Shown in pieces: positions 2,866 to 64,000 of a stretch of 64,000 nt of DNA (position 1 is its first letter; each line of letters starts with the position of its first letter). A program made the position numbers and the translations under genes. This DNA is from Eledone cirrhosa (taxonomy: Eukaryota). The stretch spans positions 22,630,001 through 22,694,000 of the forward strand of contig OZ024756.1 of NCBI GenBank assembly GCA_964016885.1, read 5' to 3'. Under the pieces are notes generated by a model. The model made no database searches. It saw only the letters and a program-made list of their open reading frames with translations, and was not told the origin of the DNA.

Positions 2866-3411
2866 GTGGTGGAACACTGGAAGGTAATATCCGTAGTGGT
2901 AGAGTACTCAGTCCATGGGACGAGTTAGGTAGAAGTGGTTACACAAGAGTTAGTTCACCATACCAAGAAAAATTGTTTCACCTTAGCGGATCTTCAGCTC
3001 GGGATGGGCATGGTTATAGGAACTGGAAGGACAACCGTAAGAACGCGCATGCGTATAAACCGGGTCACTTCACACAGACAATACTAGACTGCGTGCGAGA
3101 GGTGTAAGGGAGATAACTGTGAAAGTCCGAAAAGTTTTTAGGTTGAAAATAAAATAAAACTACAAAGAATCAGTCCGCAGCCTTGTAGTTAAGTAGTAGG
3201 TGTTTGGCGACGTGTGGACAACGTGTGAAAAATTCACTCCTCGTGTTTAGGCAATCTAGTATTGCCTGTGTGAAGTGACCAGATTTCTGCGCATGCGCGT
3301 TCGTACTGTTGTCCTTCCTGTTCCTATAACCATGCCCATCCCGAGCTGAAGATCCGCTAAGGTGAAACAATTGTTCTCGGTATGGTGAACTAACTGTTGT
3401 GTAACCACTTC
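2866..3411. mobile_element. Palindromic Penelope-like remnant in (TA)n with a hammerhead in each arm
   Basis: Inverted arms at ~2930-3091 and ~3250-3411 with a spacer. Hammerhead motifs lie at 2963-3002 (-) and 3341-3380 (+). Confidence 0.8.
3341..3380 (+). ncRNA. Minimal type I hammerhead motif
   Basis: CCGAG-CTGAAGA-tcc gctaa ggt-GAAAC AATT GTT^-CTCGG. Stem I is CCGAG/CTCGG and stem III is palindromic. The base of stem II is mismatched in this copy. Confidence 0.72.
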
Positions 3412-3531
3412 TATATATATATATTAGCTCTGTTTCTCGACCGTTATATCGCGTGACTATCTCCCCCTCCGCCTTTTGGGATTCTTTCTCACGTCGTGTA
3501 GACGCGTTCTTGAGACTAGTAAAATGAGGTA

Positions 3532-3621: not shown

Positions 3622-3879
3622 ATTTAGGAGCAGTTTAGGTATGATACATTTTATTACTAATTATATCTAAATGTTTCTTCTCTCTTCATAATGTATTTTT
3701 AACTCTGATACTGGTTCAGTCTAGTTCAACTGAATTGGTCTGTCCCAGTCATTCATTGAGCAACATCGGTGAAGTTGGCACCCTTAACTCACAGTTGGGT
3801 GCGGATGCATTCATGTATATATGTGTGTGTCCGCATGTATCTGTGTGTTTCTAATTATATTATATATATATATATATAT

Positions 3880-4343
3880 ATACAATATATTAACAAATGG
3901 AAACTATATTTATAAAACCAAATTTATTACATTATACATATTTCAAGGGCCACCAAGGCAAATGATGGTGCGCTTTCATCAGATAAAATATAATATAGGT
4001 TAGTTTTATAAATAAATATTGACATACCCTGAAAAAAGTCAACCATTCTGGTTGGAATCTCCTGGTTGGCATCTCCTGGATGCAACCAGAATGGTTGCAT
4101 ATTTTCAGGGTATGTCAATATTTATTTATAAAACTAACCTATATTATATTTTATCTGATGAAAGCGCACCATCATTTGCCTTGGTGGCCCTTGAAATATG
4201 TATAGTGAAATAAATATGGTTTTATAATTATAGTTTCCATTTGTTAATATATTGTATATTTACTCCACATCTCTGTTGAGTGCTTTATATCAGTTATAAA
4301 AATATTTTGCTTGTTGTATCCCAATAAATTAAATATAACCTCT

Positions 4344-4345
<2 letters not shown>
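3880..4345. mobile_element. Palindromic insertion in (TA)n with hammerhead-like cores
   Basis: Arms at ~3880-4055 and ~4080-4257 are reverse complements. CTGATGA-aagcgcacca...tggtggccctt-GAAATATGTA lies at 4155-4202 (+) and ~3935-3982 (-). Confidence 0.75.
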
Positions 4346-4437
<92 letters not shown>

Positions 4438-18253: not shown

Positions 18254-20451
18254 TCTTTTATTTGCCACTAGGGCATCAAAAGTGGGACAAGTACAAAGGG
18301 GGGAGTTTACACAAAAAGGCGTCCTCAATAAGGAGAAGGCAATAACAAAATATAAAAATAAAATAAGATATAACAAAAAATAAAATTTTTAACAAAATCC
18401 TCAATAGAGAGGAGGCGCCTTGGGGGGTCGCACACACCCCCGAAAAAAGTGTGCAACCCTTCTCCTCAGGTGCACAGAGAAGGGGTGCTCCCTTGGTCTT
18501 TTATCTTCCTCACCTATAGTCTGATGTAGAGTGAAGGCCCATTCACACGGGCCATTCTCGCCACTTTCACCCATCTTTCATAGAAACGGCTGGGGTGCAG
18601 CACCTCTCTCTCCATCCTGATCCTTCTTCCGAAATGATATCGGAAGAAACGGACCAGTTGTTGGCCAGAGAGAAAGGTGCCCGACCTCAGTCCTTTCAGA
18701 CGCGTCCACCATACAACCTCTTTCGCCATGGCTATTACGCACAGAAACACCGCCTCTGCTTCATCTTTGAAGGGGGGAGGCGGCTTGATCATTACAATCG
18801 ACTCGGTGGTCAACCGGATCGGTCCCACCCTTGACAGCAGTTGTTCGACATAGCCCCACAGATCGGCTACGCCCGAGCAGTGTACTAATGCGTGTGCAAC
18901 GGTTTCCTCGTCGCACACGCATCTGGGACAGATCTTTTTGGCGGGGTCCCTACCCGGGCGCCCGTGTCTGTAGAGCCTTTCTCGAACGGGTAAAGCCCCT
19001 CGGTAGCACTGCCAGGCCAGGGACTTCTGGAAGTTGTCCATAGGTCCCGGGCTGAATGTCCTACCGAACAGGCTGGCCAGTTCGTCCTCCTCCATGTCTA
19101 GGGCTTCTCCGAGGGCGTCGTCGCACCTGCTGCGTACCAGCCCTCTATAGAATGTTGCGGTGGAGTCTCCACTGATAACCGGATCCGCCTGCCAGAGGGC
19201 GGTGAGCGCCTGGGCACACTCAGTGTGCCAGGCGCCCAGTTTTCTCGGTCTTTGCTTGACCCAGGATTGCAGCTCGGTGAGTGAGACGAGTTTGGGAAAG
19301 GTTCGTCTCACAAACGAGGCCCACACCGGTTGTCCGGTGAGGAATACGTAGAGGTGCCGTAGCCTTAATGCGTGTTTACGCATCATTAGCCACGGCATCC
19401 CCAGCCCTCCTTTCGAAGGGTGTTGACAGCAGATGGATCTCCTCACCATAGGAGCCCGCCTCTTCCAAAGGAATTGGAAGAGCGCGCGCTCCATCTTGGT
19501 GAGGGTTTCCCTTGGGCAGGGCACTACGGTCAGGCGGTAGTAGATGACGGACGCTATGTAGGTGTTCGCCACCTCCGCCCGACCTTTCAGGGATAGTTTG
19601 CAACTGGCCCACTTCTGGGTCAGTGCAAACACCCTGTTCGTAACCTCCGCCCAGTTTTTCTCCACCTGGAGGTCCGGTCCGAACCAGACCCCGAGCAACT
19701 TCACCGGGCCCTCCGTCCAGCGTCCGACGACGCTATCGGAGGGCATCGGTCTGCCCCTCCACGTGCCGAGTTGCAAACCGATCGACTTGTCCCGGTTCAG
19801 CTTAGCCCCTGTGAACTTTTCGTACTCCTCCAGTAAGGTGCCGACCGCCTCGATTTCGGAGGCCGTCGACACCATTACTGTCACGTCATCGGCGTAGGCC
19901 GACACCGCTTTCCGCAATCCCGGTTCCAAAGGGATGCCCTGCAACAACTCCAACTTCCGCAGTAGTGGCTCGAGAGTCAACACATACAGAAGGGAGGAGA
20001 GAGGGCACCCTTGTCGGATGGACCGCGCGATTTTGAACGGCTCCGAGAGGTAGCCGTTCACCTTGACCCTAGAGCAGATGCGGCTGCTGTGCATAGCAGT
20101 GATCCAGCCCCTGAAAACGGGTCCGAAGCCTGCCGCCGCTAGCACCGCATCCAGGTAACCATGGTCGACCCTATCGAACGCCTTAGATTGATCCAAGTTG
20201 ATCAGAGCCCCACCAAAGCCGGGTTCGTTCCCAACCCTCTCTATGATGTATCGCATGAGGTGGAGGTTGTCATGGATGGACCTGGACGGGATAGCGCATG
20301 TCTGCGCATCTCCCACCAGGTTGCCCACGACAAGCGCCAACCTCTTTGCTAGCACCTTGGCCAAAATCTGTAACTCTGTATTTAGCAGTGTTATGGGCCT
20401 GAAGTTACTTATTTCGTCCCCCTTGTTCTCGTCCTTCCTCACTAGCGTGAC
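18251..20451 (-). mobile_element. 5'-truncated Tx1/L1-clade LINE inserted in (TA)n
   Basis: RT ORF plus 3' UTR ending GCAAATAAAAGAAAT then (AT)n. TA repeats lie on both sides and the element is visibly more GC-rich than its flanks. Confidence 0.92.
18514..20451 (-). CDS. LINE ORF2 fragment: reverse transcriptase plus C-terminal CCHC zinc knuckle
   Basis: Motifs NFRPITLLNTE, LDQSKAFDRV, RQGCPLS, AYADDV and CPRCVCDEETVAHALVHC lie in one open frame. The first residues of the track ORF come from the TA flank. Confidence 0.92.
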   Translation of the reverse strand, partial: VTLVRKDENKGDEISNFRPITLLNTELQILAKVLAKRLALVVGNLVGDAQTCAIPSRSIHDNLHLMRYIIERVGNEPGFGGALINLDQSKAFDRVDHGYLDAVLAAAGFGPVFRGWITAMHSSRICSRVKVNGYLSEPFKIARSIRQGCPLSSLLYVLTLEPLLRKLELLQGIPLEPGLRKAVSAYADDVTVMVSTASEIEAVGTLLEEYEKFTGAKLNRDKSIGLQLGTWRGRPMPSDSVVGRWTEGPVKLLGVWFGPDLQVEKNWAEVTNRVFALTQKWASCKLSLKGRAEVANTYIASVIYYRLTVVPCPRETLTKMERALFQFLWKRRAPMVRRSICCQHPSKGGLGMPWLMMRKHALRLRHLYVFLTGQPVWASFVRRTFPKLVSLTELQSWVKQRPRKLGAWHTECAQALTALWQADPVISGDSTATFYRGLVRSRCDDALGEALDMEEDELASLFGRTFSPGPMDNFQKSLAWQCYRGALPVRERLYRHGRPGRDPAKKICPRCVCDEETVAHALVHCSGVADLWGYVEQLLSRVGPIRLTTESIVMIKPPPPFKDEAEAVFLCVIAMAKEVVWWTRLKGLRSGTFLSGQQLVRFFRYHFGRRIRMEREVLHPSRFYERWVKVARMARVNGPSLYIRL

Positions 20452-20464
20452 TATATATATATAG

Positions 20465-20880
<416 letters not shown>

Positions 20881-52943: not shown

Positions 52944-52972
52944 ATATATGTTTTTATTTATATATGTATATG

Positions 52973-53172
52973 NNNNNNNNNNNNNNNNNNNNNNNNNNNN
53001 NNNNNNNNNNNNNNNNNNNNNNNNNNNNNNNNNNNNNNNNNNNNNNNNNNNNNNNNNNNNNNNNNNNNNNNNNNNNNNNNNNNNNNNNNNNNNNNNNNNN
53101 NNNNNNNNNNNNNNNNNNNNNNNNNNNNNNNNNNNNNNNNNNNNNNNNNNNNNNNNNNNNNNNNNNNNNNNN
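52973..53172. other. Assembly gap (200 N) within TA-rich repeat
   Basis: Run of N. Confidence 1.
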
Positions 53173-59820: not shown

Positions 59821-60024
59821 GCATATACATACAGACATATACACACAACACATACACTTATATATATATGTATAGATATAAATATGTGCGTATGTATATA
59901 CATACATATATATATATATATATGAATATAGACATAGAATATTCGAAAATATTCTGTATGTTTATAATAAACATTTTGAAGACCTAATCGCTATAGAATA
60001 GAATACGTCACGTATTACAATTAG

Positions 60025-60113
60025 ATTCTCGATAAAAGCAAGGGAAGTAATCTACGCGTTTCATTCTTGTTAGAATTCATCAGGACTACATATCCAGTGC
60101 TTCTATCGAGAAT
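60025..60113 (-). ncRNA. Type I hammerhead ribozyme (8 minus-strand cores at 310-bp spacing, the last at ~62195-62276)
   Basis: Reverse complement of the 62401-62489 motif: GTAATCTACGCGTTTCATTCTTGTTAGAATTCATCAGGACTAC. Confidence 0.88.
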
Positions 60114-62400
60114 GACACAGCTAGAGACTTATAGAATACTTAGCTGTGTACAGGAACTGGTTTGAAAGAGCGGTTGCCGGTCCGGCAGAAATTAGAAATT
60201 GGAATAAATGCTCTGAAATAGCGATATATATGTGAATATAGACATAGAATATTCGAAAATATTCTGTATGTTTATAATAAACATTTTGAAGACCTAATCG
60301 CTATAGAATAGAATACGTCACGTATTACAATTAGATTCTCGATAAAAGCAAGGGAAGTAATCTACGCGTTTCATTCTTGTTAGAATTCATCAGGACTACA
60401 TATCCAGTGCTTCTATCGAGAATGACACAGCTAGAGACTTATAGAATACTTAGCTGTGTACAGGAACTGGTTTGAAAGAGCGGTTGCCGGTCCGGCAGAA
60501 ATTAGAAATTGGAATAAATGCTCTGAAATAGCGATATATATGTGAATATAGACATAGAATATTCGAAAATATTCTGTATGTTTATAATAAACATTTTGAA
60601 GACCTAATCGCTATAGAATAGAATACGTCACGTATTACAATTAGATTCTCGATAAAAGCAAGGGAAGTAATCTACGCGTTTCATTCTTGTTAGAATTCAT
60701 CAGGACTACATATCCAGTGCTTCTATCGAGAATGACACAGCTAGAGACTTATAGAATACTTAGCTGTGTACAGGAACTGGTTTGAAAGAGCGGTTGCCGG
60801 TCCGGCAGAAATTAGAAATTGGAATAAATGCTCTGAAATAGCGATATATATGTGAATATAGACATAGAATATTCGAAAATATTCTGTATGTTTATAATAA
60901 ACATTTTGAAGACCTAATCGCTATAGAATAGAATACGTCACGTATTACAATTAGATTCTCGATAAAAGCAAGGGAAGTAATCTACGCGTTTCATTCTTGT
61001 TAGAATTCATCAGGACTACATATCCAGTGCTTCTATCGAGAATGACACAGCTAGAGACTTATAGAATACTTAGCTGTGTACAGGAACTGGTTTGAAAGAG
61101 CGGTTGCCGGTCCGGCAGAAATTAGAAATTGGAATAAATGCTCTGAAATAGCGATATATATGTGAATATAGACATAGAATATTCGAAAATATTCTGTATG
61201 TTTATAATAAACATTTTGAAGACCTAATCGCTATAGAATAGAATACGTCACGTATTACAATTAGATTCTCGATAAAAGCAAGGGAAGTAATCTACGCGTT
61301 TCATTCTTGTTAGAATTCATCAGGACTACATATCCAGTGCTTCTATCGAGAATGACACAGCTAGAGACTTATAGAATACTTAGCTGTGTACAGGAACTGG
61401 TTTGAAAGAGCGGTTGCCGGTCCGGCAGAAATTAGAAATTGGAATAAATGCTCTGAAATAGCGATATATATGTGAATATAGACATAGAATATTCGAAAAT
61501 ATTCTGTATGTTTATAATAAACATTTTGAAGACCTAATCGCTATAGAATAGAATACGTCACGTATTACAATTAGATTCTCGATAAAAGCAAGGGAAGTAA
61601 TCTACGCGTTTCATTCTTGTTAGAATTCATCAGGACTACATATCCAGTGCTTCTATCGAGAATGACACAGCTAGAGACTTATAGAATACTTAGCTGTGTA
61701 CAGGAACTGGTTTGAAAGAGCGGTTGCCGGTCCGGCAGAAATTAGAAATTGGAATAAATGCTCTGAAATAGCGATATATATGTGAATATAGACATAGAAT
61801 ATTCGAAAATATTCTGTATGTTTATAATAAACATTTTGAAGACCTAATCGCTATAGAATAGAATACGTCACGTATTACAATTAGATTCTCGATAAAAGCA
61901 AGGGAAGTAATCTACGCGTTTCATTCTTGTTAGAATTCATCAGGACTACATATCCAGTGCTTCTATCGAGAATGACACAGCTAGAGACTTATAGAATACT
62001 TAGCTGTGTACAGGAACTGGTTTGAAAGAGCGGTTGCCGGTCCGGCAGAAATTAGAAATTGGAATAAATGCTCTGAAATAGCGATATATATGTGAATATA
62101 GACATAGAATATTCGAAAATATTCTGTATGTTTATAATAAACATTTTGAAGACCTAATCGCTATAGAATAGAATACGTCACGTATTACAATTAGATTCTC
62201 GATAAAAGCAAGGGAAGTAATCTACGCGTTTCATTCTTGTTAGAATTCATCAGGACTACATATCCAGTGCTTCTATATTCACATATATATCGCTATTTCA
62301 GAGCATTTATTCCAATTTCTAATTTCTGCCGGACCGGCAACCGCTCTTTCAAACCAGTTCCTGTACACAGCTAAGTATTCTATAAGTCTCTAGCTGTGTC

Positions 62401-62489
62401 ATTCTCGATAGAAGCACTGGATATGTAGTCCTGATGAATTCTAACAAGAATGAAACGCGTAGATTACTTCCCTTGCTTTTATCGAGAAT
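62401..62489 (+). ncRNA. Type I hammerhead ribozyme (repeated every 310 bp; 5 complete + strand copies)
   Basis: GTAGTC-CTGATGA-ATTCT aaca AGAAT-GAAA-CGCGTA^GATTAC. Stem I is GTAGTC/GATTAC, extended by GGA/TCC and ATTCTCGATAGAAGCA/TGCTTTTATCGAGAAT. Predicted cleavage is after A62461. Confidence 0.88.
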
Positions 62490-64000
62490 CTAATTGTAAT
62501 ACGTGACGTATTCTATTCTATAGCGATTAGGTCTTCAAAATGTTTATTATAAACATACAGAATATTTTCGAATATTCTATGTCTATATTCACATATATAT
62601 CGCTATTTCAGAGCATTTATTCCAATTTCTAATTTCTGCCGGACCGGCAACCGCTCTTTCAAACCAGTTCCTGTACACAGCTAAGTATTCTATAAGTCTC
62701 TAGCTGTGTCATTCTCGATAGAAGCACTGGATATGTAGTCCTGATGAATTCTAACAAGAATGAAACGCGTAGATTACTTCCCTTGCTTTTATCGAGAATC
62801 TAATTGTAATACGTGACGTATTCTATTCTATAGCGATTAGGTCTTCAAAATGTTTATTATAAACATACAGAATATTTTCGAATATTCTATGTCTATATTC
62901 ACATATATATCGCTATTTCAGAGCATTTATTCCAATTTCTAATTTCTGCCGGACCGGCAACCGCTCTTTCAAACCAGTTCCTGTACACAGCTAAGTATTC
63001 TATAAGTCTCTAGCTGTGTCATTCTCGATAGAAGCACTGGATATGTAGTCCTGATGAATTCTAACAAGAATGAAACGCGTAGATTACTTCCCTTGCTTTT
63101 ATCGAGAATCTAATTGTAATACGTGACGTATTCTATTCTATAGCGATTAGGTCTTCAAAATGTTTATTATAAACATACAGAATATTTTCGAATATTCTAT
63201 GTCTATATTCACATATATATCGCTATTTCAGAGCATTTATTCCAATTTCTAATTTCTGCCGGACCGGCAACCGCTCTTTCAAACCAGTTCCTGTACACAG
63301 CTAAGTATTCTATAAGTCTCTAGCTGTGTCATTCTCGATAGAAGCACTGGATATGTAGTCCTGATGAATTCTAACAAGAATGAAACGCGTAGATTACTTC
63401 CCTTGCTTTTATCGAGAATCTAATTGTAATACGTGACGTATTCTATTCTATAGCGATTAGGTCTTCAAAATGTTTATTATAAACATACAGAATATTTTCG
63501 AATATTCTATGTCTATATTCACATATATATCGCTATTTCAGAGCATTTATTCCAATTTCTAATTTCTGCCGGACCGGCAACCGCTCTTTCAAACCAGTTC
63601 CTGTACACAGCTAAGTATTCTATAAGTCTCTAGCTGTGTCATTCTCGATAGAAGCACTGGATATGTAGTCCTGATGAATTCTAACAAGAATGAAACGCGT
63701 AGATTACTTCCCTTGCTTTTATCGAGAATCTAATTGTAATACGTGACGTATTCTATTCTATAGCGATTAGGTCTTCAAAATGTTTATTATAAACATACAG
63801 AATATTTTCGAATATTCTATGTCTATATTCACATATATATCGCTATTTCAGAGCATTTATTCCAATTTCTAATTTCTGCCGGACCGGCAACCGCTCTTTC
63901 AAACCAGTTCCTGTACACAGCTAAGTATTCTATAAGTCTCTAGCTGTGTCATTCTCGATAGAAGCACTGGATATGTAGTCCTGATGAATTCTAACAAGAA

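Follow-up and report, generated by a model that had tools for sequence, protein, structure and literature searches.

Architecture of the locus

The subject of this analysis is a tandem repeat array in the genome of Eledone cirrhosa, a putative retrozyme whose two arms diverge from a single inversion junction. It occupies the last 4 kb of a 64,000-nt stretch (assembly GCA_964016885.1, contig OZ024756.1, positions 22,630,001 to 22,694,000, forward strand), here called the window, and has a period of 310 bp. Window coordinates count from the first letter of the stretch; unit position 1 is the first base after the predicted hammerhead cleavage site, at window 62462. The features of the array are:

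59906..59922, no strand: (TA)n target run, 17 nt of pure TA bordering the outer end of the left arm
59923..62276, minus strand: left arm, made up of 7.59 identical 310-bp units and ending on its outer 3' side at unit position 130 (short, S-type)
62272..62276, no strand: inversion junction, a 5-nt overlap (TCTAT) joining unit positions 257 and 121
62272..64000, plus strand: in-window part of the right arm, the first 5.6 of 15.16 units
62425..62467, plus strand: one copy of a minimal type I hammerhead motif, predicted to cut after 62461 and recurring every 310 bp in both arms
62591..62630, plus strand: example of the stretch between S-type and L-type ends (positions 130-169), the counterpart of the 'tail' of Penelope-like elements (PLEs), found at one outer end only per insertion

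The right arm extends past the window to G000:C17:22696970, where it ends at unit position 169 (long, L-type) and is followed by 64 nt of (TA)n. The outer ends of this locus are thus positions 130/169. All 22.7 units across both arms are identical, and this unit type is confined to the window locus among the stretches fetched.

The first-pass annotation had described an array that inverts at a 5-bp microhomology, the left array running to 62276, the inverted array starting from 62272 and TCTAT being common to both, with divergent arms whose 3' ends face outward. Both descriptions hold: within the window, eight minus-strand cores lie in the left arm and five plus-strand cores in the right, and the ribozyme-sense strands are directed outward. 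The multi-kilobase palindrome that it proposed, and that it suggested might give dsRNA, is also present, the arms forming a perfect inverted repeat whose length is 2180 bp if the spacer is taken as 169 nt and 2354 bp if it is taken as 131 nt; and the far right end, which it had singled out for checking, does run into (TA)n. It was likewise right that the breakpoints fall at different unit positions (257 and 121). The use of this inequality to exclude a fold-back does not stand: an identical junction would result from a fold-back whose loop measured 131 or 169 nt. The case against fold-back comes instead from the family-wide evidence described below.

The exact junction sequence occurs once in the 3.0-Gb assembly, and an overlap of at least 5 nt is expected in 0.9% of random joins between two unit positions. 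The junction and the inverted array at this locus are real. Elsewhere in the window, a run of N (an assembly gap) lies at ~52970-53170 within a (TA)n region, and the minus strand of 18514-20553 holds a 679-amino-acid open frame, which we take to resemble a non-LTR reverse transcriptase (RT) of L1/Tx1 type.

Hammerhead motif and class of the repeat

The motif comprises: stem I, GUAGUC/GAUUAC; the core, CUGAUGA..GAAA; a 5-bp stem II; and a one-pair stem III with a palindromic CGCG loop. It matches the Rfam HH9 model with an E value of 0.003 and 23 bits, under the gathering score of 52; at the gathering threshold, nothing matched in the window. By analogy, the one-pair stem III suggests that cleavage would be dimeric and weak. 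The 310-bp unit folded computationally as a circle reaches -67.8 kcal/mol (z -4.5).

No open reading frame of at least 150 amino acids lies over the array. Its ends adjoin (TA)n directly, it is non-coding, and no long terminal repeat (LTR) was seen, primer-binding sites and polypurine tracts not having been searched by motif. The family is dispersed, with 2528 exact hammerhead cores genome-wide. Metazoan non-LTR retrozymes are described, in the portions of the literature available, as tandem arrays that are dispersed and non-coding, their units of 150-450 bp each carrying one type I hammerhead (PMC7229834; 10.64898/2026.07.22.740005). By anatomy the window array would be assigned to this class, its ribozyme being known here as a motif.

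A closed 340-nt unit contig was found in 6 of 8 public runs, and a 280-nt piece in one. These contigs are not taken as evidence of circular RNA, because a tandem array would yield the same kind of contig as a circle, and the runs are of unknown kind or guessed to be DNA. None of the public runs listed as containing the sequence is an RNA run, a result with no bearing on expression. Joints marked 'opposite strand' in the contig tables of the public runs were also set aside, as they are normal units crossing the inverted reference and not junctions.

Further hammerhead sequences occur in the window and elsewhere. Two other hammerhead elements in (TA)n, at window 2930-3413 and 3875-4350, likewise have divergent arms, and in each of them one end is longer than the other. 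A third such divergent element, at L132:2477-2871, is 78% like the 310-bp unit over part of its length. A loose pattern finds hammerhead-like cores of other families at window 553, 4486, 20951, 35958, 43099, 50034 and 55861.

Divergent two-arm insertions across the family

The scored set comprised 16 listed loci and 98 merged stretches on contig C1, 97 of the latter anchored on one end motif (taken from the first 98 of 128 planned) and one drawn from the exact-core list. Among 121 scored segments or insertions, 103 contain a divergent junction, 14 are single-arm, and 4 are cut by the fetch or an N gap; the ordered C1 sample contributes 92 junctions, 8 single arms and 4 cut stretches. Of the single-arm segments, three are short pieces, two of these belonging to a related family, and two retain very small inverted remnants. 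The first 100 of the 2528 exact-core matches give the same picture, with 8 of 9 loci reading minus-then-plus. No simple convergent insertion was found among those scored; convergent neighbours occur only inside L031, a complex locus that accounts for two of the 103 junctions, and as a 23-nt stray match at L081. Two-arm inversion is therefore the default product of the 310-bp family and not a rare event. The family is young.

Some loci show further complexity. At L031:2125-2302 a 65/29 join is present twice, with a short back-and-forth piece between the copies. At L120, L127 and L088 the array is located in the (TA)n centre of another inverted-repeat element.

Paired short and long outer ends

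The outer 3' ends fall in two zones: short, mainly at positions 127, 130 and 139; and long, at 154-172 and mainly 165-172. End calls at 118-126 mostly represent 130-type ends in units with a nearby variant. The long site lies 26-45 nt beyond the short site.

Both outer ends could be scored at 100 of the 103 junctions. Every one of these pairs a short with a long end: 50 are short-long and 50 long-short, with no short-short and no long-long case. The three unscorable junctions are one inner piece of L031 and two cut stretches. The other junction of L031 is among the 100, and its true outer end is also long. The stretch between the short and long sites corresponds to the one-sided PLE tail; PLE insertions carry, in the accounts available, a 30-40-bp tail at one end only (PMC8557442; PMC3846280).

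These observations bear on whether such loci could arise from an assembly error or a long-read fold-back artefact. The window junction was not seen bridged among the contigs listed from the 8 public runs, as an artefact would allow. Against this stand 103 different junctions on at least 8 contigs, whose arms are unequal and flanks distinct, together with the strict end pairing and the target duplications (below); contigs of public run X2 also show three other divergent joints with 1-4 shared letters, a weak point as their sides are 22-27 nt. The chance that the structure is artefactual is negligible. Separately, 60-82% of sampled words from window 62000-62700 occur in 20 public runs bearing 18 organism labels from 17 studies, which reflects either a wide near-identical spread or contamination.

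Junction anatomy and target duplications

Inner junctions are evenly spread over the unit. Inserts are absent from 75 of 102 junctions, and 20 of these 75 have an overlap of at least 4 nt, where 2.2% is expected. The remaining 27 carry inserts of 1-272 nt. Inner junctions are not enriched at the hammerhead cut site (long arms 5, short arms 10; 7.8 expected), so the arms did not simply end at cleaved 5' ends. Two of the inserts are a 54-nt sequence at L110:5477-5530 and a 272-nt sequence at L047:1548-1819, the latter with no Rfam match. The 54-nt insert is like a palindromic repeat present in L169 and beside L079, a likeness that suggests a template switch to the RNA of another element.

Interrupted direct repeats of 12-16 nt abut both ends at 9 of 99 loci, compared with 2.7% of shuffled pairs. 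Their length agrees with that expected of non-LTR retrozymes, in which target duplications, where they occur, exceed 4 bp. This abutting-repeat test replaced a looser one that was uninformative (20% versus 12-17% in controls). Most loci lie in pure (TA)n, where a duplication is unreadable.

Arm variants and the templates of the two arms

Where both arms span at least 1.5 units, the same majority variant set occurs in both at 68 of 72 loci. The variants are diverse, with 46 types in 97 loci and agreement between random locus pairs of 6%. Minority variants are present in both arms at 7 loci, and at 5 of the 7 their distances from the two outer ends are equal after correction for the 26-42-nt end offset. 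The implication of these five is that the two cDNAs copied one and the same RNA stretch, starting at almost the same point, and that in some templates, at least, units of more than one kind were present. From the whole-locus private variants we infer that single-unit templates, such as circles, were frequent. Post-insertion conversion between arms may be an alternative source of shared variants. Repeated minority variants hint at periods of 6, 7 or 2 units (L024, L045, L047) without establishing multimeric circles.

Shared variants would arise equally well by dual priming, in which the target ends prime on two separate RNAs from one source locus, held in one complex or dominant in the cell. 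This process has been proposed for L1 in the text available (PMC2837659), and if both RNAs came from one source arm it would account for the variant sets and for the outer-end register alike. Independent RNAs, however, give no obvious reason for a short and a long end in 100 of 100 junctions, and with 46 variant types in circulation across 97 loci the arms nevertheless match in 68 of 72. Dual priming on separate RNAs is accordingly unlikely, though worth keeping in view.

A second alternative is self-priming, or fold-back, in which one strand folds at a microhomology and copies back. In its published form, offered for head-to-head PLEs (PMC3846280, as far as its available text goes), the template is antisense and the tail arises from endonuclease resolution (Arkhipova 2013). 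With a 131- or 169-nt loop, fold-back fits the window junction; it is compatible with arms that share variants, and its long-loop form also yields outer-end-registered variants. Arm lengths argue otherwise. A hairpin predicts near-equal arms, whereas the arms differ by more than 1 unit in 70 of 100 insertions, and either end type can be the longer. A long-loop fold-back that stops short of its start would never make the short-ended arm the longer, yet it is longer in 43 of 100 insertions, by more than 1 unit in 28. Junction offsets are uniform, with 3 near-symmetric cases against 2.3 expected. Finally, at L020, L082 and L098 the arms are unequal and the variants are not mirrored about the junction; at L098 two unit types follow in the same order from both ends. 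The arm-length data weaken fold-back as a general model, and we consider it quite improbable.

Penelope-like elements as candidate enzyme source

GIY-YIG matches in the genome gave 10596 first-look candidates, of which 150 were scored. Six loci (L161, L162, L166, L168, L169, L173) form one young PLE family with an RT, a GIY-YIG domain at the C terminus and ~97% amino-acid identity; a CX4CxxC linker is present in 5 of the 6. The open frame of L161 is:

L161:3309-6122, minus strand: PLE open frame, 938 amino acids

Other PLE open frames include those of L162 (844 amino acids) and L163 (1096 amino acids). The CX4CxxC linker marks Neptune/Nematis PLEs and is proposed to direct microsatellite targeting. 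By motif, the L161 family would be of Neptune/Nematis type. It has ~2900 exact long-end copies genome-wide, and no canonical hammerhead was found in its 3' region.

The structure of these PLE insertions resembles that of the 310-bp family. Two members, L166 and L173, lie in (TA)n and have two arms, each with a ~60-nt tail at one end. On C1 0-91 Mb, 19 of 20 adjacent divergent end pairs of the L161 family are short with long, one is short with short, and none is long with long. Sequence similarity between the L161 family and the 310-bp unit is absent, so this family serves as a model of the mechanism and not as a proven partner.

A proposed two-ended mechanism

The window locus is likely one two-arm insertion, probably made by a Penelope-like RT/endonuclease with cDNA primed from both nicked target strands on the same RNA. 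The first-pass annotation had proposed two cDNAs primed from opposite ends and joined by microhomology. The family supports that proposal through its 103 junctions, the 100 of 100 end pairing, the variants shared within loci, the excess of microhomology and the target duplications.

The reaction would involve: transcription of the units, partly cut or circularised by the hammerhead, as known for the class; nicking of both (TA)n strands ~12-16 nt apart by a PLE protein, a spacing suggested by the target duplications at other loci; priming on a single RNA unit, with one 3' end using its long site and the other its short site; extension of each cDNA through many units, presumably rolling on a circle or running along a multimer; joining of the cDNA 3' ends at arbitrary unit positions, often with a 2-5-nt microhomology or a short insert, as the junction anatomy shows; and second-strand synthesis in which each strand would template the other. 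A protein dimer holding one RNA could explain the strict short/long pairing.

The ends are fixed and always complementary; that they represent RT starts is suggested by analogy with the biochemistry of the anole protein PAc. In vitro, PAc nicks and extends both strands, its RT starts internally at two sites that bound the tail, and it is predicted to be a dimer (PMC11167929). Whether PLE integration in general is an obligate two-ended reaction, with both strands nicked by a dimer whose two RT sites begin on a single RNA at mutually exclusive positions, is an evenly balanced proposition.

Several observations weigh against two-ended priming on one RNA by a PLE enzyme. The target duplication is unreadable at the window locus, both flanks being pure (TA)n. 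Most C1 loci were chosen because one end matched an exact motif, a selection that may overstate the proportion with two arms; the other end was free. No pseudo-LTR (pLTR) like the 310-bp unit was found among 50 GIY-YIG loci (30 + 20), only related hammerhead repeats nearby. In PAc the start sites do not differ between the strands, so its biochemistry gives no example of strict pairing (PMC11167929). Of the minority-variant instances in the mirrored span, 16 of 95 are shared and 79 of 95 unshared; the latter may be later mutations or errors. Two of the seven loci with shared minority variants, L045 and L059, are off the outer-end register. Finally, the inner ends of long arms are mildly enriched at 115-141 (16 of 101, p 0.014), which hints that some events involved collision or an L1-like partition.

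The last two points touch on classic L1-type twin priming, in which annealing of the second primer upstream leaves the RNA divided into two non-overlapping parts. L059 fits such a partition, as does the enrichment of long-arm inner ends near the short site. However, the inner ends of long arms fall elsewhere in 85 of 101 cases, the second start here is at a fixed and not a random position, and the outer-end-registered variants need overlapping copying. Twin priming has only a slim chance of being the general route. Of the first-pass comparison, the likeness to inverted PLE structures is retained, given the one-sided tail, and the likeness to twin priming is not, as the two arms start 26-45 nt apart and copy one common stretch.

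Significance and relation to published work

Earlier publications already describe retrozymes and their link to PLEs, as well as inverted PLE copies whose tail is one-sided. The literature search, which did not extend to subscription papers or supplements, returned no account of retrozyme insertions that have two arms and an obligate short/long pairing. It also returned no mention of two-ended priming as a cause of PLE inversions; the explanation in print, in the text available, is self-priming on an antisense template, and PMC13282606 gave nothing further on the subject. In the portions available, the origin of tandem and inverted PLE insertions is called unresolved (Craig 2021, PMC8557442; Frangieh 2024, PMC11167929), and retrozyme integration is only hypothesised (Cervera 2020, PMC7229834; Li 2026, 10.64898/2026.07.22.740005).

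The 310-bp family provides hundreds of near-identical, variant-tagged insertions that record the integration reaction. A 310-nt template with two start zones, together with a (TA)n target, allows a direct in vitro test of two-ended versus self-priming. By implication, a single repeat family has seeded a 3-Gb animal genome with many perfect palindromes of kilobase length, which might affect genome stability and the production of small RNAs. If true, an obligate two-ended rule would explain both the head-to-head inversions and the one-sided tails of PLEs. Likewise, if true, retrozyme 'satellite' arrays would be written ready-made as multi-kilobase palindromes in one step, from circles or multimers.

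Comparison with known systems

The array is like metazoan non-LTR retrozymes, as described in the available text, in its 310-bp non-coding hammerhead units, its low GC and the presence of PLEs in the same genome (PMC7229834; 10.64898/2026.07.22.740005). Its one-pair stem III and palindromic tetraloop recall the axolotl HHR_Amex1 ribozyme, as that is described in the account available. In the available portions of Cervera and de la Pena 2020 and Li, Clavereau, Pollet 2026, the retrozymes are described without inverted two-arm insertions, fixed paired ends or (TA)n targeting. The latter work (10.64898/2026.07.22.740005), in the same portions, leans to local amplification with unequal crossover, whereas the arms here are uniform, locus-specific and insertion-marked.

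Endonuclease-positive (EN+) PLE insertions, as their available descriptions have it, include a head-to-head, 5'-truncated inverted copy and a target duplication of ~8-16 bp, with a (TA)n preference in Neptune/Naiad (PMC3846280; PMC8557442; PMC11167929). The 310-bp family shares with them the two-arm form, the one-ended tail, the target duplication, the (TA)n target and two internal starts. It differs in that its cargo is a non-coding multi-unit array and that short/long pairing is counted here, at 100 of 100. Set against the self-priming hypothesis for PLEs, in its available form, the variant pattern favours two-ended priming.

L1 twin and dual priming, in the text available, are alike in that both target ends prime, the product is head-to-head, the inner junction forms by microhomology or end-joining, and a duplication flanks the insertion (PMC2837659). 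In L1, synthesis starts in the poly(A) tail, the second site is variable and upstream, and the copied parts do not overlap (same source and extent). In contrast, both starts of the 310-bp family are internal, fixed and 26-45 nt apart, one sequence is copied into both arms, and most outcomes are inverted.
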